From Antedon mediterranea (Eukaryota > Animalia > Echinodermata), in assembly GCF_964355755.1 (NCBI RefSeq), contig NC_092676.1:2051788-2115787 (forward strand): a stretch of 64,000 bases of DNA, in the 5' to 3' direction. This document shows, one piece after another, positions 1,378-53,768 of this stretch. Position 1 is the stretch's first letter; the number at the start of each line of letters is the position of its first letter. The notes beneath the pieces are model-generated. The model was given only the letters and a program-made list of their open reading frames with translations, did not search any database and was not told where the DNA came from. Position numbers and translations under genes: made by a program.

Positions 1378-4300
1378 TCGTTCTACCACCAGAACTATGG
1401 AGCGAGTAAGCCTTGAACCCTTGCCGATGGTATGGCTACTGTACGTAATCAGGTTCCACTGTCTTAACCGCTCAGTCACATATATAAAGATTGAATATCA
1501 TAGGCGGATTTGAGGTGTTTGAGGGATGGGAGATGATATTTCAAAAAAATCCTGGGTCTGCCACCGGTGGTTTAATACTACAAATCCAGCCTAGTAATAT
1601 GGAGGTCATGGGTTCAAGTCTACTATTTACATATCTTATTTTTCTTTAGATCACCAATGAAATTGTAAGACAAGTGATGGAGAACAGAGGGTTTTACAAC
1701 TTAGAGAAGCCTGGTGATTTTACCAACATTGTAGACATCCAGTATATCGCTGCTATGATCCAACCTGGTGGAGGACGTAACGACATCCCTCAGCGTCTTA
1801 AACGACAGTTTAACGTCTTCAATTCCACGCTGCCTTCCAATCAGTCCATTGATAAGATCTTCTCGACTGTAGGGACAGGTCATTATTGTAAGGTGAGATG
1901 TTTTATTTATTTATTCTTTTTACTGGGTGACCTCTTCAGTAAAAAAGCTGTTCGCCCAGTACACAAAACAGTAAAATTACAAAAGAAAAAACAGACCAGA
2001 TTACAGTTTTTAACTTAAAACAGCACATTGATATTTTTTTAATTTTAATCCATGCTAGTATAAAACAAAGCAAAACAAGGAAAAAAGCTTTTACAAATAA
2101 AGGTCCCTTAAAAAAGAGATATTAATGTTTTGTATATCCAAAGGCAAATTACTGAAAAAATATTAAAATATTTTTTAATATATAGTACAGAATATTGTAT
2201 TATTATGGTTACAACCTCTAAGTTTGAGACAAAAATATTTTATTACAATCTGTATAAAATAGTAATTTAACTACTTTTATATTATAGTATTTTATTATAA
2301 TATTTATGCTAATTTCAATTTTTTGTAGGAGAGAGAATTCTCTGATGAAGTCATTGACCTTGCCGCTATGCTAGTCTCTTGTACCAGACATCTATGGCAG
2401 AGTGTTAAAGTAAAGATGTTACCAACTCCAGCAAAATTCCATTACATTTTTAATTTGAGAGATCTTTCCAGAATCTGGCAGGTATGTACATTTTTAATTG
2501 AAAACCCCTAATATTATAATGAAACAATCCATATAAATTCAAAAATTAATTAATAATTTACTCATTTTGACTGTAACATTTTCTGTATAGGGTATGTTGA
2601 ACACCAACAGTGAGGTTGTGTGTAACCAGTCAGTGTTACTAGCATTATGGAAGCATGAATGCAACAGGGTTATTGCTGATAGGTTCACCAACCAAGAAGA
2701 TAAGAATTGGTTTGAAGCACAAATCAAAAAGGTATGTAAATAGATACTTGGGACAGCGACCTCGGTTTGAGAAGTTATTGTTCCCAGAGTTATTTCATCC
2801 CTTTAGGATGACAAACATAGAAAAGTATTTTTAATTTGTTTTGTGATTTTGCTTCAAATTATGTGAAATTGTTGTTCTTTGATATCAAAACTAATTTTGA
2901 TTAACACAAAACTAACCACAATACAAAAAAGCAATCCTTGTCTCCAGACAACCTGCTTTATTTAATTGACAAGATAATTCATAATCGTTTGTGTTATTTT
3001 TAGTAATGAAGTAAGTTAGTATTATAGGTTTGGTTTCGGTTTTACAAACCTAAACTGATTTTTTAAATATGCTATTCACTAAAGTGTAACAATCTTTTTA
3101 TTGCATCATGAGGACATTTTCATGATGACACCATGTGAACCTTGTTTACAGGATTTTAATGAAATTTTAAAAGAAATTATAGCCCTGCATTTATTCTAAT
3201 ACATTTATTTATTTATGTTTTTGCTCATGAAAAGTTAAAAATATATTTTGGTCAGTATTGTAGTATCAATCAGCTGTCATAGTCATTTTGTCTCTCTGTT
3301 TTTTCTTCTTCTTGTATATTGTACCTCTTGTTTTTAATCACAGTTTCATATCTAGCATAGGAATGTTCTGTTTGTTCTGCTGCATGATCATCAATTGAAC
3401 AGTAAATCTCATTTTTTTCAATAGTGTCACCGACACTAATGGTTTCAATGTTATTTTGATAGTGCACAACAGGTACAGGTGTGTTGTGATGTTTTCTCTT
3501 TTGTTGATCATAACAACACACAACAAACACAAGTAAAACTATCAGTATGATGTTACTTGTTACCAGTATTATGGTTATTGTATTAGCTGTCATTCTTTCT
3601 GTTGGCATGTCATATTTGATATCTCGAGATGTTGTCAGTCTGTCTGTCGGCACAACATCATTACGAATAACTTGTGATGTTGTTAGTCTGTCTGTTAGCT
3701 TGGCATCTTCAATTGTGAATGTTATCTCATTAGATCTGCTCTGAACATCAGTACTCACCAGGCACTTCACAGTGTAGTTACCAGCTGGTAAATTACCAAA
3801 GCATCTTTCATCAGTTTCATTGTAATACTGATACCTAGCTTCCTCCCCATTCAAACTCCAATTATAAATTGTTCTGTCACCAGATCCACCTTCTGCAAAG
3901 CACTTAAAGCAATTCTGGTTCACATCATTATCAGGTGTTTCATATAACCTCTTAACCTCTAGCTTTAACTGAGGGTAAACCGTCAATATCAATGTGTAGC
4001 ACCCGATACCCACATATGTTCTGTTTTTAATAGAAATACAGTAGACAAATATTCCTTCTCCAGAATGAAAACCTTTTTAAAGTCAAAGTAATTTCAATGT
4101 CAGTATCTGCTTGATGAGACTGTGTGATGTGGTACTTTCCTTGGATCCAACCAATTATCACTGCATATTGGAGATTATCATATTTTCTGATGTCACATGA
4201 AATAGATACTTCTTCTCCTTCAATCATGTCTTTCATATTGTCACAATGAAGTTTTACATACCGTGGTTGGCGTCTGCTCGGTGTAACATCTGATGAAGGA

Positions 4301-7300
4301 ACTAAATATTGTAAACTATAATCATCTTGACATGTTCGTATTCCTGTTTGTTGACCAAAAGAAATTAAGCATACGCAGTTCAAATTTAAATCTTTTCCCA
4401 ACAAATCAAGAGTTTCCTGTTTTTCATTTGATGATTTAATTGTCACAGATGACTTCATGTATGATTGGTAATACAACTTTCTGTCAAATTGTACCAACTG
4501 TCTTGAAACTCCATATCTGAATATCAACAAACAAGTCACCAACAAGTTGAAGAATTTCAAAGTCATCTTTAAAAACCTCTCTGTATTGTATATTCATTTC
4601 TTGCATTTTGTAACCTCTTGTTTTCAATCACAGTGTCAGAGCTAACATATACATTTTCAGCTTGTTCTGTTATGTTATCATCAACTGAACAGTAAATCTC
4701 ATTTTCTGTCATTATGTTTGAAACGTCAGTAGTTTTACCAATGCTAATGGTGTCATTATTACTTTGATAGTGTACAGCAGGTACAGATGTCTTCTGCAGT
4801 TTCCTCTTCTGTTGTTCATAACAACACACAACAAACACAAGTAACACTATCAGTATGACATTACTTGTTAACGATATTTTAGTTATCTTATTAGCTGTCA
4901 TGGTTTCTGTTGGATCGTCATATTTGATATCTCGAGATGTTGTCGGTCTATCTGTTGGCATGCCATCTTTAATTGTGAATTCTATCTCATCAGATCTGTT
5001 CTGAACATCAGTACTCACCAGACACTTAACAGTGTAGTTACCAGCTGGTAGATTACCAAAGCATCTTTTATCAGTTTCATTGTAATACTGATACTTGAAT
5101 TCCTCTCCATTCAAACTCCAATTATAAATTGTTCTGTCACCAGATCTACCTTCTGCATAGCACTTGAAGCAATTCTGGTTCACATCAACTTCAGGTGTCT
5201 CACATAGCTTCATAACATCTACCTTTAATTGAGGGTGAACCAGCAATTCCAATGTGTAGCACTCAATACTCACATATGAACCTTGGTTATTTGAAAAACA
5301 GTAGAAAAATATTCCTTCTCCGGAATGAAATCCTTTTACAGTCTGATTAATGGTTGTAGTGTTGTCAGTATCTAGAAGATGAAATTGTGTGATATGGTGC
5401 TGTCTTTGGATCCAGCCAATTGTGATATCATATTGGATGTTGTCATATTTCCTGATATCACATGACATGTTTACTTCCTCTCCTTCAGTTATGTCTTTCA
5501 TATCTTTGTCACAGTAAAGTTTTACATACAGTGGTTGATGTGGGCTCCATGTGACCTCTGATGAAGGTACCACATAGTGTGAATTATAATCATCTTGGCA
5601 TGTGTATATTCCTTTTTCTTGACCAAAAGAAATAAAAAGTTGGCATTTAACTATTAAATCTTTTCCCGGCAATACAACTGTTTTTTGTTCATTTGATGGA
5701 ATAATTGTCACAGGTTGTGGCTTAGTAGACCAGTAATAAAAACCTCTTTCAAATTGTACCAACTCTCTTGAAGCTCCATGTCTGAATATTAATAAACAGA
5801 TCACCAACAGGTTACAGAATTTCAAAGTCATCTTTAAAACCTCTCAGTATTGTTTGTGAAAATATACCATTCTAGTTCCCGATGTGGCCAGCGATAAGAC
5901 TGAATTGATGTTTGTATTTTTATAGGTTTATAATATTGTAATATTTAGTATTTTGAGTTTTGGTTTTTGTTGCTACTGTAATCTCGAAACTAATTTTGTG
6001 AAGAATAATATTTACATGAGCTAACATAGTCATTCTGTCTCTCTGTTCTCATTTCCTGCATTTTGTAACCTCTTGTTTTCAATCACAGTGTCACAGCTAA
6101 CATAGTCAGTCTGTTCTGTTGACTCTCTGTTCTCATTTCTTGCATTTTGTAACCTTTTGTTTTCAATCACAGTGTCAAAGGTAACATAAGAGTCCCAAGT
6201 TTATTCTTTTGTATGATCATCAATTGAACAGTAAAGCTCATTCTTTTCAACCGTTTTTGAAACATTCAAAGTGCCACCAACACTAATTGTGTCATTATTA
6301 CTTTGATAGTGCACAACAGGTACAGGTGTGTTGTGATGTTTCCTCTTTTGTTGTTCATAACAACACACAACACACACAAGTAAAACTATCAGTATGATGT
6401 TACTTGTTGCCAGTATTAGGATTATTGTATTAGCTGTCATGGTTTCTGTTGTCAAGACACATTTGATATCTTGAGATGTTGTCATTCTGTCTCTTGTCAT
6501 GACATCTTCAATTGTGAATGTTATCTCATCAGATCTGTTCTGAACATCAGTACTCACCAGACATTTAACAGTGTAGTTACCAGCTGGTAAATTACTAAAG
6601 CATCTTTCATCGGGTTCATTGTAATTCTTGAATTCCTCTCCATTCAAATTCCAATTATAAATTCTCTTGTCACCAGAGCCACCGTCTGCATAATAACACT
6701 TGAAGCAGTTCTGGTTCACATCAACTTTACATGTTTCATATAACCTTTTAACCTCTACCTTTAATTGAGGGTGAACCAGCAATATCAGTGTGTAGCACCA
6801 AACTGCTTTATAATTAAGTGAAATACAGTAGAAAAATATTCCTTCTCCGGAATGAAATCCTTTTACAGTCTGATTAATTGTTGTAATGTTGTCAGTATCT
6901 AGAAGATGAAATTGTGTGATGTAGTTTTTTCCTTGGATCCAACCAATTGTGATGTCATATTGAATTTGGTCATATTTCCTGATGTCACATGAAATGTTTA
7001 CTTCCTCTCCTTCAATGATGTCTTTCATGTTGTCACAGTAAAGTTTTACATAGAATGATTGACTTCTGCTCTGTGTAACATTTGAGGAAAGAACCAAGTA
7101 TTGTAAATTATCATCATCTTGACATGTGTATATTCCATTTTGTTGATCAAAAGAAATAAAAAGTGGGCATTTAACTATGAAATCTTTTCCTGGAAATACA
7201 AGCGTGTTCTGTTTACTTGATGGTGTAATTGTCACAGGTTGTAGCTTAGTGTGTGATTGGTAATCAAAACCTCTGTCAAATTGTACCAACTCTCTTGAAG

Positions 7301-10300
7301 ATCCATGTCTGAATATCAACAAGCAAGTCATCACCAACAGATTAAAGAATTTTAAAGTCATCTTTAGCATCCTCTCTGTATTTTTTGTGAAAATCCAATC
7401 TCTGAGACTGAAGTGATGTTTGTAGTTGTATAGGTTTATAATACATGGAAACACAAAAGGAAATACAGTATTTAGTATCTGAGTTTTGTTTTTGTTGCTG
7501 CTGTAATATCGAAACTAATTTTGTGAAGAATAATATTTACATGAGCTAACACAGTCAGTCTGTCTCTCTGTTCTAATTTCTTGCATTTTGTAACCTTTTG
7601 TTTTCAATCACAATGTCAAAGGTGACATAGGAGTGCTATGTTTATTCTGCTGTATGATTGCATTTATTTGTTTGAAAAAAACATTTAAGACTTCTAAAAA
7701 GTCAATGATGCTCTATATCTCGCAAGCCAGAAGTCAGTTGAATAGTAAATCTCATTCTTTTCAATATCAATGTGTAGCACCCAATACCCACATATGTTCT
7801 GTTTTTAATAGAAATACAGTAGACAAATATTCCTTCTCCAGAATGAAAACCTTTTAAAGTCAAAGTAATTTCAATGTCAGTATCTGCTTGATGAGACTGT
7901 GTAATGTTTTACTTTCCTTGGATCCAACCAATTGTCACTGCATATTGATGATGTCATATTTTCTGATGTCACATGAAATATTTACTTCCTCTCCTGTAAT
8001 GATGTCTTTCCTAATATTGTTACAGTAAAGGTACTGTGACTGGCGTGTGCTCATTGTAACATCTTGTGTAGAAACCAAATATTATATCATCTTGACATGT
8101 GTGTATTCTTGTTTGTTGACCAAAAGAAATTAAGCATAAGCATTTCAAATTAAATCTTTTCCCACCAAATCACAAGTTTCCTCTTTTTCATTTGATAAAA
8201 TAAAGTGTCACTGATAGTGATAGTGTAAGATTGATAATAAAACTTTCTTTCAAATTGTACTGTCGTAAAGCTTTGAATATCAACAAGCAGATCACCAACA
8301 GGTTAAAGACCTCTCTGTATTGTTTGTGAAAATTCATCCTCTGTTTGTATTTGTATATGTTTATAATATTTAAAATAAACAAAAGAAAATAATTAGTATT
8401 TGAGTTTTGGTTTTTGTTGCTAATAGGCATATATCAAAACTAATTTTGCGAAAGTAAGTAGGTAATATTTATTGCTTTTTGCTTGCTTTCTTTTCTATTT
8501 CTTGCATTTTGTAACCTTTTGTTTCAAATCACAGTGTCAAAGGTAACATAGGAGTCCCATGTTTATTCATCTGTATGATCATCAATTGAACAGTAAACCT
8601 CATGTTCTGCATTAATTTGCTGAACATCAGAAGTGTTACCAACACTAATTGTGTCAATGTTACTTTGATAGTGCACAACTGGTACAGGTGTGTTGTGATG
8701 TTTCCTCTTTTGTTGTTCATAACAACACACAACAAACACAAGTAAAACTATCAGTATGATGTTACTTGTTACTATTATGGTTATCTTATTGGCCTTCTTT
8801 GTAGCTGTTGTCATGTCATCTTTAATTGTAAATGCTATCTCATCAGATCTGTTTTGAACATCAGTACTCACCAGACACTTCACAGTGTATTCACCAGCTG
8901 TTAAATTACCAAAGCACCTTTCAACAGTTTCATAGAAACGATACTGGAATTCCTCTCCTCTCAAACTCCAATTAAAAATCTTTTTACCAGATCCACCTTC
9001 TGCATAACACTTGAAGCAATTCTGGTTCACATCAACTTCATATACCCTTGTGATCTTTACCATTAATTGTGGGTGAACCGCCATAACCAATTGATAGCAA
9101 TACAGTAGAAAAACATCCCTTGTCCAGAATGAAAACATTTAAGAGTCTGAATAATTGTAATGTCAGTATCCGTATGATGAGTCTGTATAATGTTGTGATT
9201 TCCTTGAACCCAAATAGTTGTCACTTCATATTGGATGTTGTCATCTTTTCTGATCAAGTCACATGAAATGTGTACTTCCTCGCCTTCAACGATGTCCCTC
9301 ATACCGTCACAATAGAGGTTTACAAGTTCTGGTTGAGATGTGGTATATGTCACACCCGGCAATGTATAAATAGTATGTTGAAAATTATCATCAAATTGAC
9401 ATAAGTATAGTCCGTGATTAGAACCAAACAATGAAAAGTGGACATTTAACTGTTTCATATTTTCCTGAACGATTAACACTCTTTCGTTTCATTACTGGTG
9501 TGATTGCAATGTTTACCTTACTTGTTGATGAGTACTGAAATTTGTAACTAAATTTTACCAAACTTCTTGAAGCTCCTCCATGTCTGAATATCAACAAGCA
9601 AGTCATCACCAACAGATTAACAATTTTTAAAGTCATCTTTAAAACCTCTCTGTATTGTTTGTGAAAACACACCCTTCTAGTTCCAGATGTGGCCAGCAAT
9701 AAGACTGAATTGATGTTTCTATTTTTATAGGTTTATAATATTGTAATATTTAGTATTTTGAGTTTTGGTTTTTGTTGCTACTGTAATATCGAAACTAATT
9801 TTGTGAAGAATAATATCTACATGAGCTAACATGGTCATTCTGTCTCTCTGTTCTCATTTCTTGCATTTTGTAACCTTTTGTTTCCAATCACAGTGTCAAA
9901 GGTGACATAAGAGTGCTATGTTTATTCTGCTGTATGATTATCAATTGAACAGTAAAGCTCATTCTTTTCAACAGTTTGCAAAGCATTCAAAGTGTCACCA
10001 ACATTAATTGTATCATTATTACTTTGATAGTGCACAACAGGTACAGGTGTGTTGTGATGTTTCCTCTTTTGTTGTTCATAACAACACACAACAAACATGA
10101 GTAAAACTATCAGTATCATGTTACTTGTTACCAGTATTATAGTTATTGTATTAACTGTCATGGTTTCTGTTGTTGTGTAATGTTTTCCTTGGATTCAACC
10201 AATTGCGATGTCATATTGGATGTTGTCATTTTTCCTGATGTCACATGACATGTTTACTTCCTCTCCTTCAATCATGTCTTTCATATTGTCACAGTAAAGT

Positions 10301-13300
10301 TTTACATACCGTGGTTGATGTGGGCTCCATGTAACATCTGATGAAGGTACCACATAGTGTGAATTATCATCATCGTGGCATGTGTATATTCCTTTTTCTT
10401 GAACAAAAGAAATAAAAAGTTGGCATTTGACTTTGAAATCTTTTAATGGCATTACAAGCGTTTTCTGTTTATTTGATGGTGTAATTGTCACAGGTTGTAG
10501 CTTAGTGTATGATTGGTAATAAAAACCTCGGTCAAATTGTACCAACTGTCATGAAGCTCCATGTCTGAATATCAACAAGCAAGTCACCACCAACAGGTTA
10601 AAGAATTTCAAAGTCATCTTTAGAAACCTCTCTGTATTGTTTGTGAAAATCCAAATCCTCAGTTCCTGATGTGGCCAGAGACTAAAGTGATGTTTGTATT
10701 TGTATAGTTTTATAATATAGTAACACAAAAAATAATATTTAGTATTTGTGTTTTGTTTTTGTTGCTACTGTAATATCGAAACTAATTTTGTGAAGAATAA
10801 TATTTACATGAGCTAACATAGTCAGTCTGTCTCTCTTTTTTTCATTGCATTTTGTAACATTTTGTTTCCAATCACAGTGTCAAGGGTAACATAGGAGTGC
10901 CATGTTTATTCTGCTGTATGATCATCAATTGAACAGTAAATCTCATTTTTTTCAATGGTTTGCAAAACATTCAAAGTGTCACCAACACTAATTGTGTCAT
11001 TGTTTCTTTGATAGTGCACAACAGGTACAGGTGTGTTGTGATGTTTCCTCTTTTGTTGTTCATGACAACACACAATAAACACAAGTAAAACTATCAGTAT
11101 GATGTTACTTGTTACTAGTATTATGATTATTGTATTAGCTGTCATGATTTCTGTTGTCAAGACACATTTGATATCTTGAGATGTTGTCATTCTGTCTCTT
11201 GTCATAACATCTTCAATTGTGAATGTTATCTCATCAGATCTGTTCTGAACATCAGTACTCACCAGACACTTAACAGTGTAGTTACCAGCTGGTAAATTAC
11301 TAAAGCATCTTTCATCGGGTTCATTGTAATTCTTGAATTCCTCTCCATTCAAATTCCAATTATAAATTCTCTTGTCACCAGAGCCACCGTCTGCATAATA
11401 ACACTTGAAGCAGTTCTGGTTCACATCAACTTTACATGTTTCATATAACCTTTTAACCTCTACCTTTAATTGAGGGTGAACCAGCAATATCAGTGTGTAG
11501 CACCAAACTGCTTTATAATTAAGTGAAATACAGTAGAAAAATATTCCTTCTCCGCCGGAATGAAATCCTTTTACAGTCTGATTAATTGTTGTAGTGTTGT
11601 CAGTATCTAGAAGATGAAATTGTGTGATGTAGTTTTTTCCTTGGATCCAACCAATTGTGATGTCATATTGAATTTGGTCATATTTCCTGATGTCACATGA
11701 AATGTTTACTTCCTCTCCTTCAATGATGTCTTTCATGTTGTCACAGTAAAGTTTTACATACAGTGGTTGATGTGGGCTCCATGTGACCTCTGATGAAGGT
11801 ACCACATAGTGTGAATTATAATCATCTTGGCATGTGTATATTCCTTTTTCTTGACCAAAAGAAATAAAAAGTGGGCATTTAACTATGAAATCTTTTCCTG
11901 GAAATACAAGCGTGTTCTGTTTACTTGATGGTGTAATTGTCACAGGTTGTAGCTTAGTGTGTGATTGGTAATCAAAACCTCTGTCAAATTGTACCAACTC
12001 TCTTGAAGATCCATGTCTGAATATCAACAAGCAAGTCATCACCAACAGATTAAAGAATTTTAAAGTCATCTTTAGCATCCTCTCTGTATTTTTTGTGAAA
12101 ATCCAATCTCTGAGACTGAAGTGATTTTTGTATTTGTATAGGTTTATAATACATGGAAACACAAAAGGAAATACAGTATTTAGTATCTGAGTTTTGTTTT
12201 TGTTGCTGCTGTAATATCGAAACTAATTTTGTGAAGAATAATATTTACATGAGCTAACACAGTCAGTCTGTCTCTCTGTTCTAATTTCTTGCATTTTGTA
12301 ACCTTTTGTTTTCAATCACAATGTCAAAGGTGACATAGGAGTGCTATGTTTATTCTGCTGTATGATTGCATTTATTTGTTTGAAAAAAACATTTAAGACT
12401 TCTAAAAAGTCAATGATGCTCTATATCTCGCAAGCCAGAAGTCAGTTGAATAGTAAATCTCATTCTTTTCAATATCAATGTGTAGCACCCAATACCCACA
12501 TATGTTCTGTTTTTAATAGAAATACAGTAGACAAATATTCCTTCTCCAGAATGAAAACCTTTTAAAGTCAAAGTAATTTCAATGTCAGTATCTGCTTGAT
12601 GAGACTGTGTAATGTTTTACTTTCCTTGGATCCAACCAATTGTCACTGCATATTGATGATGTCATATTTTCTGATGTCACATGAAATATTTACTTCCTCT
12701 CCTGTAATGATGTCTTTCCTAATATTGTTACAGTAAAGGTACTGTGACTGGCGTGTGCTCATTGTAACATCTTGTGTAGAAACCAAATATTATTATCATC
12801 TTGACATGTGTGTATTCTTGTTTGTTGACCAAAAGAAATTAAGCATAAGCATTTCAAATTAAATCTTTTCCCAACAAATCACAAGTTTCCTCTTTTTTAT
12901 TTGATAAAGTAAAGTGTCACTGATAGTGATAGTGTAAGATTGATAATAAAACTTTCTTTCAAATTGTACTGTCGTAAAGATTTGAATATCAACAAGCAGA
13001 TCACCAACAGGTTAAAGACCTCTCTGTATTGTTTGTGAAAATTCATCCTCTGTTTGTATTTGTATATGTTTATAATATTTAAAATAAACAAAAGAAAATA
13101 ATTAGTATTTGAGTTTTGGTTTTTGTTGCTAATAGGCATATCAAAACTAATTTTGCGAAAGTAAGTAGGTAATATTTATTGCTTTTTGCTTGCTTTCTTT
13201 TCTATTTCTTGCATTTTGTAACCTTTTGTTTCAAATCACAGTGTCAAAGGTAACATAGGAGTCCCATGTTTATTCATCTGTATGATCATCAATTGAACAG

Positions 13301-16300
13301 TAAACCTCATGTTCTGCATTAATTTGCTGAACATCAGAAGTGTCACCAACACTAATTGTGTCAATGTTACTTTGATAGTGCACAACTGGTACAGGTGTGT
13401 TGTGATGTTTCCTCTTTTGTTGTTCATAATAACACACAACAAACACAAGTAAAACTATCAGTATGATGTTACTTGTTACTATTATGGTTATCTTATTGGC
13501 CTTCTTTGTAGCTGTTGTCATGTCATCTTTAATTGTAAATGCTATCTCATCAGATCTGTTCTGAACATCAGTACTCACCAGACACTTGACAGTGTATTCA
13601 CCAGCTGTTAAATTACCAAAGTTTCATAGAAACGATACTGGAATTCCTCTCCTCTCAAACTCCAATTAAAAATCTTTTTACCAGATCCACCTTCTGCAAA
13701 CACTTGAAGCAATTCTGGTTCACATCAACTTCATATACCCTTGTGATCTTTACCATTAATTGTGGGTGAACCGCCATAACCAATTGATAGCAATACAGTA
13801 GAAAAACATCCCTTGTCCAGAATGAAAACATTTAAGAGTCTGAATAATTGTAATGTCAGTATCCGTATGATGAGTCTGTATAATGTTGTGATTTCCTTGA
13901 ACCCAAATAGTTGTCACTTCATATTGGATGTTGTCATCTTTTCTGATCAAGTCACATGAAATGTGTACTTCCTCGCCTTCAACGATGTCTCTCATACCGT
14001 CACAATAGAGTTTTACAAGTTCTGGTTGAGATTTGGTCCATGTTACACCTGATTTATAAATAGTATATTGAGTTTTATCATCAAATTGACATTAGTATAT
14101 TCCTTGATTAGAACCAAACGAAATGAAAAGTGGACATTTAACTGTTTCATATTTTCCGTAACAAATAACACTCTGTTGTTTACTTGATGGTGTGATTGCA
14201 ATGTTTACCTTACTTGTTAATGAGTACTAAAACTTTAAATCAAATATTACCAAACTTCTTGAAGCTCCTCCATGTCCGAATATCAACAAGCATGTCATCA
14301 CCAACAGATTAACAATTTTTGAAGTCATCTTTAAAAACCTTTCTGTATTGTTTGTGAAAATCCACCTTTCTAGTTCCTGATGTGGCCAGAGACTGAAGTG
14401 ATGTTTGTATTTCTATAGGTTTATAATATGAAATAAACACAAAAGAAAATAATTAGTATTTGAGTTTTGGTTTTTGTTGCTAATGGGCTATTTTGTGAAA
14501 TTAAGTAGGTAATATTTATGGCTTTTCAAGAAATGTACAATTTATAAAATAGCATAATATTTGAATGAAAGTAAAAGGATTGAATAATATACACATTTAA
14601 CATTGAGAAATTAAACATGGAAAGCAGGGGATAATAAGAAAGAACAATATTTAAATCAGTAAGTGTCTATAAAAACTCCAATAAAGTACAAGTTTAAACT
14701 GTAATCTATTGTTCTTAAAGGTTGCAGAGGCAGACCTTGGCACAGCATTAGCAGAGCAAATCCCTGCTGAACCGTTCTTTGTTGACTTTCTACGAGATGC
14801 TCCTGAAATAACAGGTTAACTTTTTTGTTAAAATTGTTTGTTTATGCCAAATCTATTTCATGGTGTTGCCATCGCTATATTTATATATTAACATAGATTA
14901 ATAGTAGTTTACTAACTAACATTTTTCATGGCTTTTTACATATAAATGTTGTATACTTTTTTTTAGATTGTTTTGAAAATTATCATCTATCTGTAATGAA
15001 ATAAACTCATGCAGGATTTGGACCCACAATTGTGTAACTTACTTATATCTTGGTATCTTTGGTTTTGACAAGAAAAATACAAAATTTCTGCATTGTTTAC
15101 AATAAAAATTACAATAAAAATGCAATATTCAAATATTAAAATTACATCAAAAATTTAAAATGTATGTATAAAAAAAACAATCGATTTCACGATAAAATTA
15201 CAATATAATATAAAAATGACATCAAAAAGTTCAATTTAAATATTAAAAAAACCTTCGTTGAGAGACGTAAAATATCTAAGTATATAAAGTGACATCAAAA
15301 GAGTAACGATAAAAATATTTAAACAAAGTATCATTGATCATAGACAGTTTTGGTTATTTAGTAATCTGGTTTTACAAACGTATATTTACTAAAAATGTTA
15401 CTTATTATATTTTGTAGGTGATGAACCCGATGATGCTGACCTAGATGCACCTAAGATATATGAACCAATAGAATCCTATCAACAACTAAACGACAGGCTG
15501 ATAGGGTTCATGGCTCAGTACAATGAAACAGTGAGAGGGGGCAAGATGGATTTGGTCTTCTTTAAGGTAATACATATGAGAGTTATCAACCTGTAGCCGT
15601 ATTCACCAATCACACTTAAGTGAGATATATTAAGTGTTTATATATATAATATTAAGTATTTCACTTGAACTCAATAAATACTTAAGTATTTCTCTTAAAT
15701 TGTATTCACTTTACGTAGAAGATTTTTTTTCTTAGCTTAAGTATGAATGGTGAATTCAGCCAATGAGTTGTACTAGAAATTACTAAAGGTTACAGCTTAT
15801 TTAATAACAGTATGTTAGTAGAGTACACAGTACAGTATACCTGTGAAACGAGGGGCAATATGTGTTTTAAAAACCCCTTTCCTGCAATTTTGGACGTTTT
15901 TTGGAAAATAATACATATATATCACTTTAAAAACATTAAACCATGTCATTCCTTGTCTTAAATGTACGTTTTATGGTAAATTATGATAAAAAGTGAGAAA
16001 CAATGCACTACCTAAGTAGCTCGCGGCGATCGACCTCTCGTGGACGGTCTTAGGCCTAGCCTAGCTAGGCTTAGTTTTGTAGGCCTAGCTGGTAAACATC
16101 GATAACGTACGAACATCGTACGCTAGCTATATACCTAGCCTGACGTTGTATAGTTGCTGCATTAATTGTCTTTCTATTTTTGCCAGACTCCGTTGATACA
16201 AATTGGGGAAAACCCGGTATTTTCGCTGAAAAGTTAGGAGTCTTCCATTTGTTTTGGCTTCACGATCGATCGAAAAGTGGGCGAATTACAGGTGAAAAAC

Positions 16301-19300
16301 AAAAATATCAATCCGCGCGCAATGCATTTTGGGATTTACAGCGGGCCGCTATAAATATTAGAATCGATTTATTTTTCACATTTTTAACCGTTTAAAGACG
16401 AAAAAAGTTATCGCAATAGGACAATATAGTATTATTTTTACATTAAATATAGTTTGTGATCTTAAATTAGATCTAAAAAACGTAGGGAATGGGGCTTTAA
16501 TGTGACACTTATGCTGGATTCCTAAAGCCTGTTTTCCTGTCGACGTTATTCACGTTGATCGTTAACAGTTCAACGACGATCGTTTGAAAACGATCAAGTT
16601 GAAATGATAACGATAGCGTGTACTTTTTCCTGTAAATCGTTAACATTTCAATGTTTTTTTATGTAGAAGATCGCCGATTATTGTTAACCATGGCGTCAAC
16701 TAACGTCGACAGGAAAACAGTCTTAAGGTGTCCTCTTATAGTGACTCTACTGTTTTTTTTAAATCGATAAGAAAATATGTTCAAGTTTATTATTTATTTT
16801 ATTTGCTATAAACTATACCATGGGTTAATTTGTTTTAGGTAATTAGGTAATACAGTATTAGGGTAACAATAATGGTTCACTTGGTTGTAGTAGGTGGTAA
16901 TGGTACACAGGTAATACCTCCCTGGTTACCAGTACCTGTAAACATTGGTTATGGTTTGGTGGTGGTATATGGTATTGGGTGCTTGTTGTGGCAGTGGTGC
17001 TAATATCAAATACATATTATACATTTATATTTTCACTAGGATGCTATGGTGCATTTAGTTAAGATATCTAGAATAATCCGTACGCCACGTGGTAATGCTC
17101 TGCTAGTTGGTGTTGGTGGTTCTGGTAAGCAGAGCCTAACAAGATTAGCCTCATTCATTGCTGGATACAAGAGCTTTCAAATAACACTGACAAGGTTTGT
17201 CTTTTAATTATTGTATTTAAACTGGAATAAATTCAGTTCCAAATGTTTTACTCCCCTTATCTTATATCTTATTTTGCAATACATTTTAACAATACAAACT
17301 TACGGTACTAATTTGTCTGACAACAATGATAGGGACTAAGATTCAATTCAATTCAATCAACTTTATTGTCAAACTCATGAATGGCTTGAAACTTTGGCTG
17401 AAACACACATTAAAAGATGGACCAATACACCAGGGTACCTCAACATATGCACTGGTTTCTTTGTGCGCACAAGCCAGATATGTACACTGGACCTCCAGTT
17501 TTAAGTCCTTTCAAGAAGACTTATTCTACCACCAGAACTATGAGGAGGGACTTGAACCGGTGCTATGGCTCGGCTATTCAACCCCACAAACTTATTCAAG
17601 TTTACTTGACTTACCAAGTTTCCATATTTTGAAATAAAAAAATATGTCTCCAAGGTGAATTAATATATGGAAATAAAAATATATTGTTTTTTTTTAATTT
17701 TTACTCTCATTTTCTTAGATCGTATAATGTTGCCAACTTGATGGATGATCTAAAGCATCTTTATCGTACGGCAGGTCAACAAGGTCAAGGAATAACGTTC
17801 ATCTTTACCGATAATGAGATTAAAGATGAAGGATTCTTGGAGTATATGAACAACGTACTAGCATCAGGAGAAGTAAATAAACAAAACTGAAATTTTGTCC
17901 ACCAAACATTTAGCTTTAAAAACTTCCTTATTTTGTCTAATTATTGGTATTTATTGTTTTTAATAAATAATACTTATTGTCATCTTTCTTTTCATAATTA
18001 ATTTCTTCTTATTTCAGGTTTCAAATTTATTTGCCCGTGATGAAATAGATGAGATCACAGGTGAGCTGATACCAGTTATGAAGAAAGAGTTTCCAAGACG
18101 ACCGCCGACCAATGAGAATCTTTACGAGTATTTCTTGAGCAGAGTCCGCGCCAACCTACATGTGGTTTTGTGCTTCTCACCTGTAAGTCAATCTCTGGAT
18201 GTTTTGCTTTGTTAAAATCTTGAAGCTGATAAGGTTATCACTATGATTTCCACAAATTAATAGAACTGTAGCTAGATGGTTAACATGCTTGCCTTCCAAT
18301 CCCAAGGTCCAGGGTTCAATCCTGACCTAGTGCTTTTTTTAAAAATGGTAGTTCTAGAGTGTTGACATGATTTGAACCGAGGACCCAAGAATTCTTGTTA
18401 ACGACTAAGCTACAGCGCCACTATTATAGATTTATGCTCAGGGTTGACAGTCACATCAATATCAGTATACGAAAGCCACAATTATTATCATGATGAATAA
18501 AGAAAAACAAATTATTTTTTATTTTATTTTCTTATCATGTCAGGTTGGTGAAAAGTTCCGTAGCCGCTCGTTAAAGTTTCCCGGTCTGATCTCCGGCTGT
18601 ACAATGGATTGGTTCAGCCGATGGCCAAAAGACGCCCTTATAGCAGTGTCGCAACATTTCCTGTCAAGTTTTGAGATTGTTTGCACAGATACTGTCAAAC
18701 AGAGTGTTGTTAACACTATGGGTGTCTTCCAGGTAATGTAAAACAAATTTTCAGTACACCAATGCTGTGTCTACACTATCAAACTAGTTTGACAAAAAAA
18801 TGTGATATGCCCAAATTTGGTAGTGATATGGCCAAATATGGTGGTGATATGACATCATCATGTCCATATATGGACACATCACATTTTTTTGTCAAATAAA
18901 GTTGGATAGTGTAGACAGAGCTTTAGACCATTTTCAGCTACAATCAATCAATCAATCGTAATTTCATTTTTCAATTTAGGACATGGTTGCGGAATCTTGC
19001 ATCGATTATTTTCAGCGTTTCCGGCGACAGATGCATGTCACTCCAAAGTCGTACTTATCGTTTATCGACAGCTTCACTCAGGTGTATGCTGAGAAGCTCA
19101 AAGCTATTGGTATCCTTGCTAATAGGATGCAAACTGGTAAGCATTATTTTTAAATTGCTTAATTTAAACTTGCGGTTATAGGAAAAACTTTCCAACACAC
19201 AAGAAATGTTTAAAAGCTATGGCCAACACCTTTAGGGGTTCTAAACCAGAATTATATGTATGTATGTACGAGTAAGAGATATTAAACTAGATCATCTGTA

Positions 19301-22300
19301 TGTATGTACGAGTAAGAGATATTAAACTAGATCGTCTGTATGTATGTATGAGTAAGAGATATTAAACTAGATCATCTGTATGTATGTATGAGTAAGAGAT
19401 ATTAAACTAGATCATCTGTATGTATGTACGAGTAAGAGATATTAAACTAGATCATCTGTATGTATGTATGAGTAAGAGATATTAAACTAGATCATCTGTA
19501 TGTATGTATGAGTAAGAGATATTAAACTAGATCATCTGTATGTATGTATGAGTAAGAGATATTAAACTAGATCATCTGTATGTATGTATGAGTAAGAGAT
19601 ATTAAACTAGATCGTCTGTATGTATGTACGAGTAAGAGATATTAAACTAGATCATCTGTATGTATGTATGAGTAAGAGATATTAAACTAGATCATCTGTA
19701 TGTATGTACGAGTAAGAGATATTAAACTAGATCATCTGTATGTATGTATGAGTAAGAGATATTAAACTAGATCATCTGTATGTATGTATGAGTAGGAGAT
19801 ATTAAACTAGATCATCTGTATGTATGTACAAGTAAGAGATATTAAACTAGATCATCTGTATGTATGTATGAGTAAGAGATATTAAACTAGATCATCTGTA
19901 TGTATGTACGAGTAAGAGATATTAAACTAGATCATCTGTATGTATGTACAAGTAAGAGATATTAAACTAGATCGTCTGTATGTATGTATGAGTAAGAGAT
20001 ATTAAACTAGATCGTCTGTATGTATGTATGAGTAAGAGATATTAAACTAGATCATCTGTATGTATGTATGAGTAAGAGATATTAAACTAGATCATCTGTA
20101 TGTATGTATGAGTAAGAGATATTAAACTAGATCGTCTGTATGTATGTACAAGTAAGAGATATTAAACTAGATCGTCTGTATGTATGTACGAGTAAGAGAT
20201 ATTAAACTAGATCATCTGTATGTATGTATGAGTAAGAGATATTAAACTAGATCATCTGTATGTATGTATGAGTAAGAGATATTAAACTAGATCATCTGTA
20301 TGTATGTATGAGTAAGAGATATTAAACTAGATCGTCTGTATGTATGTATGAGTAAGAGATATTAAACTAGATCGTCTGTATGTATGTACAAGTAAGAGAT
20401 ATTAAACTAGATCATCTGTATGTATGTACAAGTAAGAGATATTAAACTAGATCATCTGTATGTATGTACAAGTAAGAGATATTAAACTAGATCATCTGTA
20501 TGTATGTATGAGTAAGAGATATTAAACTAGATCGTCTGTATGTATGTACAAGTAAGAGATATTAAACTAGATCATCTGTATGTATGTATGAGTAAGAGAT
20601 ATTAAACTAGATCGTCTGTATGTATGTACAAGTAAGAGATATTAAACTAGATCATCTGTATGTATGTACAAGTAAGAGATATTAAACTAGATCATCTGTA
20701 TGTATGTATGAGTAAGAGATATTAAACTCGATCATCTGTATGTATGTATGAGTAAGAGATATTAAACTAGATCGTCTGTATGTATGTACAAGTAAGAGAT
20801 ATTAAACTAAATCGTCTGTATGTATGTACAAGTAAGAGATATTAAACTAGATCATCTGTATGTATGTATGAGTAAGAGATATTAAACTAGATCATCTGTA
20901 TGTATGTACGAGTAAGAGATATTAAACTAGATCATCTGTATGTATGTACAAGTAAGAGATATTAAACTAGATCATCTGTATGTATGTATGAGTAAGAGAT
21001 ATTAAACTAGATCATCTGTATGTATGTACGAGTAAGAGATATTAAACTAGATCATCTGTATGTATGTATGAGTAAGAGATATTAAACAAGATCATCTGTA
21101 TGTATGTACGAGTAAGAGATATTAAACTAGATCATCTGTATGTATGTACGAGTAAGAGATATTAAACTAGATCGTCTGTATGTTGTATGTATGTTATTCT
21201 TGGTCCTCAAGTCTAACTGAAAACTAAGGAAATTTAGATTGAGCTCTCCACAGACACGGCAGCCAGCAGTACTGTAACAGCGCCTACCAGATGAGCACAC
21301 CAGGAGACGATCCCCTACTTTTTCGAATAGTGTACCAAGTTCTTGTTCAGTACAGTTTCGTTCCTCCCACTAATGCCAGTCGCATCCAAGAGGTAGTCTT
21401 CTCTAGCATCTAAATTTATGCTGGGTCCTACTGTTGAAAGCCTTCCTTGACTGGGTTAGCTTCTTTAGCTTGACTAGGATCGCACTGAAGGAGATTGCTT
21501 AATTAATGTTGTCTTTTTTTAGGTCTTGCTAAATTAGTGGAAGCTACAAGTTCTGTAAATGAACTGAGCAAAGAACTGGCTGTGAAAGAGAAAGAACTGG
21601 CAGTGGCATCCAAGAAGGCAGATGCTGTATTGGCAGAGGTCACTGTTAGTGCTCAGGCCGCTGAAAAGGTCAAGGCACAAGTCCAAAAAGTCAAAGATAA
21701 AGCCCAGGCTATTGTAGATGAGATTGAGGTGAATACACAATTCAATTTTTGTCAATAAAACTTTTGATACTTTTTTGAAATTCTGTCTATAATGTTTAAA
21801 TTTTTAAAAACATGGGAATTTTTTTTAAATTGAGAATTTTACAATTTTGTTTAGGCTGACAAAGCTATAGCTACCGAGAAGCTAGAAGCAGCTAAGCCAG
21901 CATTAAAAGAAGCCGATGCAGCCCTCAACACCATCAAGCCAACCCACATCTCAACAGTGCGTAAGTTAGCTAAGCCACCTCATCTCATCATGAGGATTAT
22001 GGACTGTGTGCTGTTACTGTTCCAGCATAAGATGGACTCGCCTTCGTTAGACCCAGAGAAGCCTTGCATGAAGCCATGCTGGGGGGAATCATTGAAACTT
22101 ATGGGAGGCAGCAACTTCTTGCAAGGACTTCTCTCTTTTCCAAAGGTAACAATTCAATTTAATTCTTTATTAATACATAAAAAAAAATATGATAAAATTA
22201 ACTTCAAGAAGGTAAACAACAAAACAAACAACATCAAAACTTTCAAAAACAATTATTTCTCCTGTTAACATAATTATTAACCGGCAAAATCATGCACTGC

Positions 22301-25300
22301 CATAAGAAAATTTAATTAATCAAAATAAAAAAATAGTTCCCTCTATAACAATGCTATACAAATCATAACGCAAATCTGAATAAAATGAGCATTTGAGTAC
22401 AAAATTAAATTCATCTTCATACCTAGTTAATCATAACGTGATTATGTCTTTCAATTCTCTATGATAATTATAAAAAGTTATATGTAGCAAAATAAGGGTA
22501 ATGAAGAAAAATGTAATGATTTTTGTAATAGTTGCTTTTATGTTGTTTTATGTAATAAGATGTACATAGGGAATTCCTTCATATTTTAATTCTTTATTGC
22601 ATTGTAAGTGAAGATCGAGAATAATGAACTTAAAATCCCTCTTGCTGTGTTATTGTTCCTACACACATTATTTAAATGACATATTCACTTAATTATTTTG
22701 TTGTTCATCCATTTTAGGATAGTATTAATGAAGAAACGGTAGAACTATTACAGCCATATATGGACATGGAAGATTACAACATGGAGGCTGCTAAGAAGTC
22801 ATGTGGTGATGTAGCTGGTCTCTGTTCCTGGACTAAGGCCATGTCTTTCTTCTACGGGATTAATAAACAAGTGCTGCCGTTAAAAGTAAGTTTATATATC
22901 ATTATTATAGTTCCCTTTTTATGATGGTGTGAGTATGTCAAATGTACGGTACTGTGTGTATTTACATGTGCAAAGAAAACAGAAAGTGTGGAACATACAA
23001 AAATCCATGTTAAAACATGCAATAATATGCAACTAAACAGACTAAGCACCCCCCCCCCCCCCTACCTCCACTCCCTGCCTCGTTTATGTTTATTCATGTT
23101 GTTATGAAATATATTTTGCCTTTCCTAACTTTGATCAGAGTTTTATATTATCATTATATTTTCGTTATTTATGTAAACTTCTGTCTTTGTAGGCAAATCT
23201 CATTCTACAAGAAGCACGTCTTGATAAAGCAATGGAAACATTACGAGAGGCTCAGAGTCAACTAGATGAGAAACAGAAGGAATTAGATGTGGTACAGGCC
23301 ATGTATGATAGTGCCATCGCAGAAAAACAGGTAAGAATATGACGTTTCATAGACTTTTTATTTGTAATGTTACATTTCTTAAAAGTTACAAGCACCAACA
23401 AAGTTTTTTTAGTAGAAGAATTAATTGCACTTTCAAGAATTATAATATGTAAGCTCCTCACCATTATTTGATGAAGAACTTGGCAAAAAAAATGATACCT
23501 ATTATACAGCAGTCTCTGAAAGCTTCAAACACATTGTTGGCTAATACTATTATTTTGATTTGATTTCTAGGCACTGTTGGATGATGCTGAGAGTTGCCGT
23601 AGAAAGATGAACAATGCTACAGCTCTCATAGAAGGTCTTGGAGGTGAAAAGGTTCGTTGGACAGAGGCTAGCAAATCATTTGAAGAGCAAATCAACAGGT
23701 AAACAACAACAATCCTATCTATTCTTGATTCATAGAAAATATATCTTTCCAGATAGCATCCCTGAGGAGGAGAGAACCTTTTATCATTTTGGCAATCTAG
23801 TTATCAGTGGTTTTTCTGTTCATACTGTACTGTTGTCTCCTTAACCTCTGTCTACACTATCAAACTAGTTTGACAAAAAAAGTGTGATATGCCCACATTT
23901 GGTAATGATATGACATCATCATGTTCATATATAGGCATTTGGTAATGATATGACATCATCATGTCCATATATAGGCACATCACATTTTTTTGTCACATAA
24001 AGTTTGATAGTGTAGACAGAACGTAAGAATGTAAACATTTTTTATATTTTATTCCAGACTTGTAGGAGATGTCCTTCTAGCTACTGGGTTCTTGTCCTAT
24101 TCTGGACCGTTCAATCAGGAATTCCGAGAATTGCTTATCAAGAATTGGAAGAGAGAGATGAATGTCAATAAAATTCCATACAGTGATGTAAGTAGTGGCA
24201 CTGCAGCTTAATGGTTAACATGCTTGCCTACAAATCCCAAAGTCCTTGGTTCAAGTTTTTTTTCCATGGTCAAAACATTTCCACTACCTTAAACCCTGTC
24301 TACACTATGAAACAAGTTTGATATGCCCAAATATAGTAGTGATATGCCCAAATATGGTAGTGATATGCCCAAATATGGTAGTGATATGACATCATCATGT
24401 CTATATATGGGCACATCACTTTTTTTTATTTTAACATGTTGCTTTATTCATATGTGTTTATTTCAGGACTTGAACATCAGTGGCATGTTGACTGATTCAG
24501 CTACAATTGGTGAATGGAATTTGCAAGGCTTACCAAACGACGAGCTGTCAATCCAAAATGGCATCATCGTAACCAAGGGAACACGATTCCCGTTGCTCAT
24601 AGATCCGCAAGGTCAAGGCAAGACTTGGATTCGCAATCGTGAAAGCGATAATCAGTTACAGGTCACGACGTTGAATCATAAATACTTTAGGACTCATCTT
24701 GAAGATAGTTTGTCTTTAGGGCGCCCTCTGTTGATTGAGGATGTTGGCGAAGAGTTAGATCCTGCTTTGGATAATGTACTTGAGAAAAACTTTATCAAAT
24801 CTGGAAGTACATACAAGGTTGGTTTGTTTAAATAATTTATTCGATAATTATTGTTTGAAACATCAAAAAACTCAACAGTTCTTTTCAGAACTATACATGG
24901 TGTACCGCAAACTTTATATCAACTTATCCAATAATTTTAATGATTCAAAATGACCTTGTACTCTTTTAAAAAAACAAACACTGTAGAAGTTGTGTTTGCT
25001 GTAAACACAATTTGTTTCCCTTAGCTACTTAAAATCTAAGTTAAGCTTTATTTATATATCATGGAGGCTAGACCAACACTGGGGTGTTCCTCTGTTGACT
25101 ATGCATGAAAATGTACGTACAAGATACAAGAAACTTTATTTGTCTTCGTAAAAAACAGCAAAAGAAAAGTCAGCAAATCCGATTAAAAGATACATATATA
25201 AAACGGACTAAAAAGGACAAAAAGACATTCCTCAAAGTAGCTTACTGCTTTATATCAATAATGTATCTCAACAAATATTACAAAAACAGCCACTTTTCAT

Positions 25301-28300
25301 TCTGTGTATTCCTACATTTCTATGTTACTATTGTAGGTGAAAGTTGGAGACAAAGAAATAGATGTGATGAATGGATTCTGTCTGTATATAACAACGAAGC
25401 TGGCCAATCCTGCATACACGCCAGAGGTCAGTGCCAGAACGTCCATCATTGACTTCACGGTCACCATCAAAGGACTTGAAGACCAGTTGCTAGGAATCGT
25501 CATCTTGACGGAGAAGAATGAACTGGAAGCTGAAAGAGTCAAACTTATGGAAGAGGTTGGTGAACATTTGTAATTTCGTTTCTAAAGCTCCGTCTGCACT
25601 AGCAAACTTTATGTGAAAAAAATGTTATGTGCCCATATATGGACATGATGATGTCATATCACTACCATATTTGGGTATATCACACTTTTTTTGTTAAACT
25701 AGTTTGATAGTGTAGACAGAGCTTTACAGAGTGAAGTATTAAGGGCGTGTTCAGACTTATTTACCTGTGTAAATTAGTAATCTACCCACCAAAGTTAACT
25801 ATAAGTGTTCCATAAATCAGCTTAGCGGGTAAGTAAATAAGCCTGAACAAACCCGTGGAATGTCAGTTAAATGTGTTTATAAACTTTTTCACAAAAAAAT
25901 AGTTTTATTTATTGATTCTTCTTGCTTTGCACAGGTCACAGCAAACAAGCGCAAGATGCAGGAACTAGAAGATAACCTTCTGTACAGACTAACAAGTACA
26001 GAGGGCTCACTAGTAGAAGATGAGTCACTGATTGAGGTGCTGAAAGTCACTAAAGAAACGGCTGAAGACGTTAGTGAGAAACTGACGATTGCTGCTGAGA
26101 CAGAGATACGTATAAACACAGCAAGAGAGGAGTTCAGACCGGTTGCTACTAGAGGAAGTATCCTGTACTTCTTGATAGTGGAAATGAGTATGGTGAACGT
26201 TATGTACCAGACGTCTCTTAAACAGTTCCTTGGGATCTTTGACTTATCCATGGCAAAGTAAGTTTATTTGTCTCTCATAAATCCCTTTCACATTGCCAGC
26301 AGCAAAACTTGGTGTGTACTCTAGGGCTTGGCAATGTGAAACGGGTTATTTGTAGATTTAAAAGACTTTGAAATGGCTTGTTTTTTACATTGTTCCATTC
26401 AAGGTAGAAACAGATCTCCTATATCACATATGCACAATCAAGTTTTTAAATACTCTTTTAAAACCAGTGAGAAAAGTTTAGCTCTTTCTTGAAGTGTTGT
26501 GTATATATCTTGACCTCAAATGTTTTTTTACATTAAATCTCACCTTTTATTCACAGATCTACAAAAAGCCCCATAACAGGTAAGCGTATCAACAACATAA
26601 TTGAATACCTGACATATGAATCGTTCCAGTACACAGCCAGAGGGTTGTATGAAAACCACAAGTTCCTATTTACACTCCTGCTTGCGCTCAAGATTGACCT
26701 GCAAGGAAAGAAGATCAAACACGAGGAATTTCAAACACTTATCAAAGGTAAGATTCTGTTGTTCCAATGGACTTAAAGTGAATTACTATTACTACTGTGT
26801 AGCTATTCTATGCAAAATGTACTACCAAACCCAAGTGTAAGCCCACTCCGAGATATAAGTCCATCTCCTGAATTTTGAGACATTTGTATGGAAAATTATC
26901 TTTCATATTGTGGTTGTTGCATATAATGCCACCAAAGAAGAGGCTGGGCTTATCTGAAATCAATACAGTTAAAAATGTTTTATTAATAATTGTCCATTCC
27001 ACTGTAAATGAAATGAAGTTAAATGTTGATGTTTACTCTTGTGACTATAGGTGGCGCTGCTCTAGATTTAAATGCAGTGGAACAAAAGCCCAAGAAATGG
27101 ATCTCAGACATGACCTGGTTGAACCTGGTCCAGTTGAGCAAACTTCCGCAGTTCTCACAGATCCTAGGTCAGATAGGTCGCAACGACAAAGGCTGGAAAG
27201 GTTGGTTTGATGAAGATGCACCAGAAGAGGCTGTGATTCCAGATGGATATTCTGCTTCTCTTGATGTCTTTCGTAAGCTTCTGTTGGTGAGGTCGTGGTG
27301 TCCGGATCGTACCATTCCGCAGGCTAGGCATTATATTGCAGGTTCTATTGGTGTTAAGGTAAGTCTTGCTTGCTGTAGTATGGTGGTATGGTATGGTGCC
27401 CAAACATGGTAGTGATATGCCCAAACATGGTAGTGATATGCCCAAACATGGTAGTGATATGCCCAAACATGGTAGTGATATGCCCAAACATGGTAGTGAT
27501 ATGCCCAAACATGGTAGTGATATGCCCAAACATGGTAGTGATATGCCCAAACATGGTAGTGATATGCCCAAACATGGTAGTGATATGCCCAAACATGGTA
27601 GTGATATGCCCAAACATGGTAGTGATATGCCCAAACATGGTAGTGATATGTCCATTAAAGGGCACATCACATTTTTTTGTCACATAAAGTTTGATAGTGT
27701 AGACAAGGCTTTAGAAGTGTTTTGTCTTAAAAATAAATTTTATGCAACAATTGTTTTTTTGTAGTTTGCAGAGGGTGTTATTCTGAATATGGAAGAAATG
27801 CAGAATGAAAGTACAAAGCGTGTTCCATTGATCTGTTTCCTGTCAATGGGATCTGATCCTACTGAGAACATTGAGAGACTAGCCAAGAAAATGGGAATCA
27901 GTAAGTTTAAATGATATCATTCAATGTAATAAGTTATATAAAGCTCTGTCCACACTATCAAACTAGTTTGTAGACAGAGCTTTATTCATTCATACATTAA
28001 TGTATATCTCTTTTATTGTTCAATTGTATATTGATTACAGGATGCTCTGCCATCAGCATGGGACAGGGACAGGAAGTGCACGCGAGACGACTCATTTCAG
28101 GATGCATGCAAGATGGAGGATGGGCACTCCTCCAAAATTGCCATCTTGGTTTAGATTTCATGGATGAATTACTTGAAACAGTAAGTTCACAGTACAATAT
28201 AAATGTATTATCTAACAAATATAAACATGGCAAGCTATTTTGCATGCAGGTGTAATTTATACCGTACATGATTAAGTATAATCCCATGCTCAAGTATTTA

Positions 28301-34639: not shown

Positions 34640-48163
<13,524 letters not shown>

Positions 48164-53045: not shown

Positions 53046-53768
53046 AAAAAGTTATTTTGGCGTAATAGTCTTGATCTCTTCTAATAAAGTTATTTTGGTC
53101 TAATAGTGTCTTCGAACACAGTTATTATTATAATTATAGTAGATAATTGATTGTTGTACTGCAAACGTAAATTTCAAACTAAAATTACCTTTCCAGAAGT
53201 TGACAACAAAAGAATAGAAAGGTAATATTTATAATAGTATATTGTTTGCCTGGTAGTATACTAGTAATAAAGTAGTATTACAACAAAAGTTAGCAACGAT
53301 AATAGCATGGGGTCAAAGCCCAGGATGTGCATTGTTTACGATGAAAGTGAGAAACAACAAGTTTGGTATTGTAATCAAGAAATCGATGATTGAAAAAAAT
53401 TATTTATTTTTGATTGGTTCATACACAAAACAGTTTTGAATGCATCACAGGTTAAAGGTCGGGGTGATCCTTCGCTTACATTAAGGTTGTTGTTTTGCAT
53501 CCAAGCAGGAACTAAAGCTCTGTTTACACTATCAAATTTTATGCGACAAAAAAAAATGTGATGTGTCTATATATGGACCTGATGTCATATCACTACCATA
53601 TTTAGGCATATCACCACCAAATTTGAGAACCTCACACTTTTTTTGTCAAACTAGTTTGATAGTGTAGACAGAGCTTAAGCTTAACATTATGGATCATGGC
53701 AATTTTTTTAGGCCGTCTATATAGAAACTCCAACAAGAAGAGGACGCATTTAAAATCAAACAAATGGT

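Follow-up and report, generated by a model that had tools for sequence, protein, structure and literature searches.

How does a receptor gene come to carry, within an ectodomain almost identical to that of one neighbour, a segment identical to that of another, more distant one? The question is raised by an array of nine receptor units (U1 to U9), all on the minus strand, in a 64,000-bp stretch of the genome of the crinoid Antedon mediterranea (assembly GCF_964355755.1, contig NC_092676.1, positions 2,051,788 to 2,115,787; hereafter the window, in whose coordinates all positions are given). Self-comparison and tblastn place the units at 3270-14330, an array wider than the interval 5520..11860 in which the exchange had originally been located. 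The best reading is of a birth-and-death receptor array shaped by germline gene conversion and unequal crossover, in which one mosaic is unusually clean. Its patchwork is probably the work of ordinary germline ectopic recombination, with a gene-conversion tract of 95-135 bp likely having passed from U8 to U3.

The mosaic can be read directly from the three uninterrupted open reading frames (ORFs) of the array, all of them intronless: U3 (10906..12069, 387 amino acids), the likely recipient; U7 (6201..7361, 386 amino acids), with a tract type of its own and an N-glycan sequon at N94; and U8 (4569..5831, 420 amino acids), the likely donor, with a longer tail. The N-terminal identity of U3 to the distant U8, already pointed out in the original prediction, is exact over 135 bp, being a maximal exact match between 11738..11872 in U3 and 5506..5640 in U8 (minus strand in both; U8 residues 64-108), and the two peptides quoted there, one of the U3/U8 type and one of the U7 type, were both confirmed. 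The further claim that U3 and U7 are near-identical along most of their length stands for the ectodomain but not beyond about 11170 and 6465, respectively, where the near-identity ends and the transmembrane (TM) segment and tail are 8% different. U3 and U7 mismatch at 24 of 135 positions in the tract and, over the rest of the ectodomain, at 3 of 756 (Fisher p 7e-18), while the corresponding figures for U3 and U8 are 0 of 135 and 96 of 747 (p 8e-8). The 24 U3/U7 differences, at 11855-11761, are flanked by 17- and 23-bp blocks common to U3, U7, and U8. Each of them falls within the run shared by U3 and U8 and is identical to a U7/U8 difference there, so a single U8-to-U3 event suffices.

Formal tests (run, pairwise homoplasy index [PHI], and approximately unbiased [AU] tests, all in our own implementations on one MAFFT alignment) point the same way. 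In a GENECONV-like test over 604 polymorphic columns, the U3-U8 run spans 75 sites and scores 27.1; the highest null score reached over 2000 joint permutations was 10.2. The triplet of U3 against U7 and U8 shows 24 U8 sites consecutively (p 5e-5). The grouping of U3 with U7 is rejected by the AU test in the tract (p 0.007), and that of U3 with U8 on both flanks (p 0.005 and 0.0008). The PHI test is significant on the six full-length units (p 0.0002) and stays so when U3 is left out (p 0.026). By AU, PHI, and trees alike, the topology returns to the flank type on either side of the tract. Trees are incongruent across windows, in keeping with shuffling, which congruent trees would contradict; the agreement of the run, triplet, PHI, and AU tests bears out the idea of recurrent conversion and unequal crossover among the copies. 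Convergent evolution under selection was rejected as the cause of the patch, because synonymous sites were copied too: synonymous differences in the tract number 0 between U3 and U8 and 6.5 between U3 and U7.

Mosaics beyond U3 were assessed with 13 triplets plus distances, and triplets and trees were relied on for these events because the run test also flags merely conserved blocks. One is U4 (9922..10617), a pseudogene with two stops and a deletion at about 10175 that has cost it the remainder of domain 2 together with domain 3 and the stalk. Its U8-type tract at 10421-10219 (triplet p 5e-5) starts at nearly the same place as that of U3 and differs from U8 at 6 of 135 positions, compared with 42 of 301 outside (p 0.003), which suggests an event older than the U3 patch. 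Thus U4, once described as a mix of U7-, U8-, and U9-like pieces, is indeed U7-like with a U8-like tract, but the U9 pieces are weak (p 0.024 uncorrected, in 1 of 13 triplets, and no significant U4-U9 run). The likeness noted between the upstream flanks of U8 and U5 is upheld at 4.9% divergence, versus 11-21% to other units (triplet p 5e-5). U5 (8563..9636), a type A pseudogene, consists of a U8-like flank (9818-9630) joined to a U1-type gene, and the boundary is likely an old unequal-crossover junction.

The decayed pseudogene U2 (12235..13030), a U9-like ectodomain remnant from which domain 3 to TM has been deleted, and its near-identical counterpart U6 (7530..8320) were said to carry a U9-like block in domain 1. 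U9 is in fact their nearest relative over the entire retained ectodomain, but the near-identity is in domain 2 (0.7% divergence, with a 119-bp run at 12610-12492 versus 4125-4006 in U9) and not in domain 1 (15-18%); their 3' end is U4/U7-like. The stretch shared with U9 is free of the lesions found elsewhere in these pseudogenes, for which reason transfer from gene to pseudogene would be the likelier direction. The U9 unit (3270..4566) has a single frameshift at about 4073, one extra A in an A run, within the stretch common to U2 and U6, which lack it; the extra letter could be a sequencing error.

U1 (13270..14328; tblastn and alignment) is a type A pseudogene with stops and frameshifts, and U1, U2, U4, U5, and U6 are all broken. 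For the ectodomain the outgroup consists of U1 and U5 (~30%), yet in the tail these two lie only 11-14% from U3, U4, and U7. A TAA common to the tails of U1-U7 (e.g., 10906-10908) is CAA in U8 and U9, where translation reads on; the stop cuts 30-40 tail residues and loses further tyrosines, and short-tailed and long-tailed receptor forms both exist. A tyrosine-bearing stretch 3' of the stop is doubled after U7 (6050-6160). Finally, a block at 11170..14000, comprising the 3' part of U1, U2, and the U3 ectodomain, matches about 6465-9320 (3' U5, U6, and U7 ectodomain). Leaving the tract aside, the two differ by 14 mismatches over 2692 bp (0.52%) and by 5 indel events.

The history that we infer from these features would begin with an old unequal crossover that duplicated part of the array and left U5 as a chimera of U8-type flank and U1-type gene. 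A recent 2.8-kb homogenisation or duplication would then have made U1'-U2-U3 match U5'-U6-U7 to within 0.5%. Subsequently, U8, which lies 6.2 kb from U3 and has the same orientation, may have served as template for the repair of a break in U3, the tract ending in short conserved blocks (the LFISF and VKLYCD codons), and an earlier event of the same type would have given U4 its U8-type tract. The outcome would be a new N-terminal surface, with 14 of 45 residues altered relative to U7 and the N94 sequon lost, paired with a U3/U7 body and a short tail. A role in recognition for the patched surface is suggested solely by analogy.

Several observations weigh against this account. Several other "significant" runs (U1-U8 and U1-U3, for example that between U1 and U8 in domain 3) are conserved blocks only; domain 3 and TM also contain long identical runs, which were considered as conversion and rejected on the same ground. 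Divergence between U7 and U8 is not significantly higher in the tract than in the rest (p 0.14). The ratio of nonsynonymous to synonymous rates (dN/dS) in the tract, at 0.73-1.51, is near 1 (8 non-independent pairs, 4 with pseudogenes) and is no proof of selection; it is 0.33-0.64 in 9 of 10 pairs for domain 2 (1.11 in the other) and 0.37-0.64 in 6 pairs for domain 3 (near-identical pairs excluded), and it is also high in the first half of domain 1 and in the stalk. Moreover, U4 is nearer to U3/U7 outside the tract (29/307) while having the tract type of U3, from which it follows that U7 could be the altered copy. Read evidence adds two further points. Eight public sequencing runs from 3 studies were available, none listed as RNA, and contigs of 4 runs were compared with the window and cover the array. 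In X1 and X4, no piece among those listed (8 per run, with 2051 more unlisted) reads across the U3 patch junctions or spans the array, which leaves the assembly as the support for the patch. Many contigs are only 90-95% alike (202 of 594 in run X1), and many have letters foreign to the window, which means that unseen donors may exist.

Of the alternatives, a reversed direction survives best, although we consider it unlikely. The U3/U4 type would then be native, U3 would have converted U8, and the U7 tract would have come later from a paralog outside the window. This would accord with the 9% separation of U4 from U3/U7 outside the tract as against 4.4% from U3 inside it, with the 17% separation of U7 from U4 in the tract (p 0.026), and with read contigs that point to paralogs or alleles beyond those in the window. 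A tail motif at about 6094 is found in 8-20 contigs per run; their depth, some 10 times that of unique pieces, hints at further alleles or paralogs and at many more copies elsewhere, although contig depth is no measure of copy number. Contigs from a second organism (run X7, organism B) covering 11662-11896 are 94% alike to the U3/U8/U4 tract type, and that type may therefore predate the species split; the pieces at 11662-11843 and 11755-11896 have 11 and 8 differing letters, respectively, and do not discriminate among U3, U4, and U8. The reversal does, however, require two independent recent events with ends coinciding within 17 and 23 bp, together with an unseen donor. In either direction, the clean event drew on an intact ORF as its donor.

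A false tandem join of two haplotypes (U1-U4 and U5-U9), which would make U3 and U7 alleles and the patch a polymorphic conversion allele, is improbable. The 14/2692 block difference is allele-like, and the X1 depths (50 for contigs shared by U3 and U7, 24-26 for U9, U4, and U1 contigs, and 43 for the flank) fit one copy per haplotype; contig depth is not equal to copy number, though, and two copies on a single haplotype would account for these depths as well. U4 also has no counterpart in the other half, the block ends are 8-10% diverged, and U3-U8 conversion would have to be invoked all the same.

Very little probability attaches to a consensus or polishing error in which U3 was overwritten by U8 reads. 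Perfect identity is what such an error would produce, and the junctions rest on the assembly rather than on reads, but the reads would have had to map over flanks that are 13% divergent, and a like patch in U4 with 6 later differences is not producible by error. Absence of differences over 135 bp is in any case expected at the age of the block (0.5%), and X1 contigs equal U9, U8, U4, and U1 over 185-320 bp with 0 differences, though perhaps they derive from the assembly's own sample and are thus not independent. The case against an assembly error is accordingly an indirect one. Least probable of all is a programmed or somatic templated diversification from pseudogene cassettes, as known from chicken immunoglobulin (Ig) genes and lamprey variable lymphocyte receptors, for although five or six of the nine units are broken and the U3 and U4 tracts begin at nearly the same conserved block, the clean donor U8 is an intact ORF, there are three intact ORFs rather than a single site of expression, the pseudogenes show a decay not seen in maintained donors, and nothing points to somatic mosaicism, with the limit that a single assembly cannot reveal somatic events. 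The related suggestion that pseudogenes serve as sequence donors is not supported: both partners in the sole clean event, U3 and U8, are intact, and in the event between U9 and U2/U6 the gene is the likelier donor. Ordinary germline conversion from U8 to U3 stays the preferred explanation.

What kind of protein is being reshuffled? In the full-length model (predicted local distance difference test [pLDDT] 59), a signal helix is followed by three beta regions; a low-confidence stalk then leads to a TM helix, and the tail is disordered. Its hydrophobic helices at residues 3-15 and 313-347 fit a signal peptide and a single TM segment, and the units are predicted to encode a type-I receptor with a signal peptide, TM helix, and cytoplasmic tail. 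A model of residues 22-200 is more confident (pLDDT 90, predicted template modelling score 0.86, 9 rows). Within it, residues 22-100 form a confident beta module that most fold matches leave unaligned, and domain 2 (residues 101-200) matches generic beta-sandwiches with Z up to 8.2. Domain 3 is Ig-like (Z 9.8, root-mean-square deviation [rmsd] 2.5, 83 residues aligned to HLA-DM beta). The predicted layout is an unclassified N-terminal beta module followed by two Ig-like sandwiches. The tract (U8 residues 64-108) takes in the second half of that module and runs on through the first strand of domain 2; U3 and U7 differ there at 14 of 45 residues, and U3 lacks the N94 sequon of U7. Foldseek returned only poor C3-type matches for the two-domain model (rmsd 13); that the N-terminal module found no fold match does not argue for a new fold. 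In language-model comparisons the neighbours are Ig receptors, for example PECAM and Siglec clusters (Atlas, 0.92-0.94). No Pfam Ig domain exceeded the cut-off, Ig_3 reaching E 0.26 and 12 bits versus 30 in one of the three ORFs. The tails of U3, U7, U8, and U9 contain several tyrosines and no match to an immunoreceptor tyrosine-based inhibitory, activation, or switch motif (ITIM, ITAM, or ITSM), and no internal homology among domains 1, 2, and 3 was detected.

Homologs are scarce. Among 5.8 billion proteins and 1.84 billion representatives, the sole close homologs are two uncharacterised Antedon mediterranea proteins, XP_071957072.1 and XP_071950092.1, which are 65% and 37% identical to U8 and have the same series of domains and cysteines as the array units; the one of 499 residues has an unrelated tail. 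Searches among shorter (30-135 residues) and longer (875-2495 residues) proteins yielded none, and three weak matches, P0003-P0005, were rejected, being long proteins of repeats that carry Ig or SpaA-like domains. No paper on a crinoid Ig receptor cluster or on this family was found in the literature searched, supplements and subscription papers being outside its scope. Gene conversion in tandem receptor clusters is textbook knowledge, and the mechanism is therefore no surprise; the process is known, and the receptor family is apparently undescribed.

The closest parallels come from other clustered receptor and immune genes. In Xenopus and human CEACAM genes, conversion is described as confined to N-terminal ligand-binding regions (PMC5112662). 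Like the predicted receptors of the array, the CEACAM paired receptors of Xenopus and mammals are clustered, Ig-type, type-I receptors whose copies have different tails, and their recent, N-terminally limited conversion is visible as missing synonymous differences (PMC5112662). CEACAM genes are multi-exon, with V-set N domains and ITIM or ITAM tails, and the paper stresses opposite gene orientation, whereas the array is intronless and of one orientation, has a tract that is part of a module, and shows neither ITIM/ITAM motifs nor sequence homology. For the Alr allorecognition complex of Hydractinia, sequence donation among loci has been proposed (PMC3276163). The Alr genes differ from the array in having V-set, I-set, and Fn3-like domains, exons, and some ITAM or ITIM tails (PMC9546547), as well as genetically proven function and a megabase scale (PMC3276163, PMC9546547); the array occupies 11 kb and has no detected homology to them. 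Finally, the SpTransformer (SpTrf, or Sp185/333) genes of the sea urchin likewise form an echinoderm tandem cluster of small genes with mosaic sequences, for which conversion and 4-5 kb segmental duplications have been proposed; each gene has two exons, GA/GAT repeats lie on the flanks, and pseudogenes are almost absent (PMC3091723, PMC5103432). By contrast, most copies in the array are broken, the product is a predicted Ig-like receptor, and Tandem Repeats Finder reported no row inside 3.2-14.6 kb, i.e., over the array. The DNA history is akin to those of CEACAM, Alr, and Sp185/333, and the array is a member of none of them, because its N-terminal module is unclassified, ITIM/ITAM motifs are absent, the units are intronless, and no homology was detected.

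The value of the locus lies in the family rather than in the mechanism. It is conceivable, if well short of probable, that this is a crinoid-specific polymorphic recognition locus, for self/non-self, pathogens, or symbionts, in which a 45-residue cassette of the unclassified N-terminal module is repeatedly swapped, and kept by selection, between receptors with different tyrosine tails. With the same reserve, the cassette, bounded by homology blocks, might be regarded as the crinoid counterpart of Alr/CEACAM micro-conversion within a dynein intron. If the swapped segment is the binding surface, the 11-kb locus would offer a compact system for testing how crinoid receptors diversify: it is amplifiable from flanking dynein exons, and U3 and U7 provide a natural ectodomain pair differing almost solely in the swapped segment.

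The host of the array is a DNAH5-like axonemal dynein heavy-chain gene on the plus strand (264-30900), and the nine units form an antisense nest in a single ~12-kb intron (2732..14720, 11,989 bp), with a GT donor at 2732 and an AG acceptor at 14720. The exon ending at 2731 aligns to DNAH5 residues 2803-2847, and an exon 3' of the array aligns, in the same chain, to residues 2882-2934; a short open dynein exon starts at 14721 between the two. Elsewhere in the dynein gene there is a minisatellite at 19242-21189 (40-bp period, 48.7 copies, 96% matches). A 165-bp repeat that contains a 21-bp unit is dispersed over the window in both orientations, at 18761-18927, 23840-24028, 25581-25726, 29164-29329, 29892-30056, and 53512-53676, and its 21-bp unit forms a 12-copy array at 27397-27654. 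Beyond the dynein gene lies a Runx gene (35048-48163, plus strand): the exon at 35048-35569 encodes the Runt domain, and the last exon (47297-48163), rich in Pro/Ser/Thr, terminates in VWRPY.

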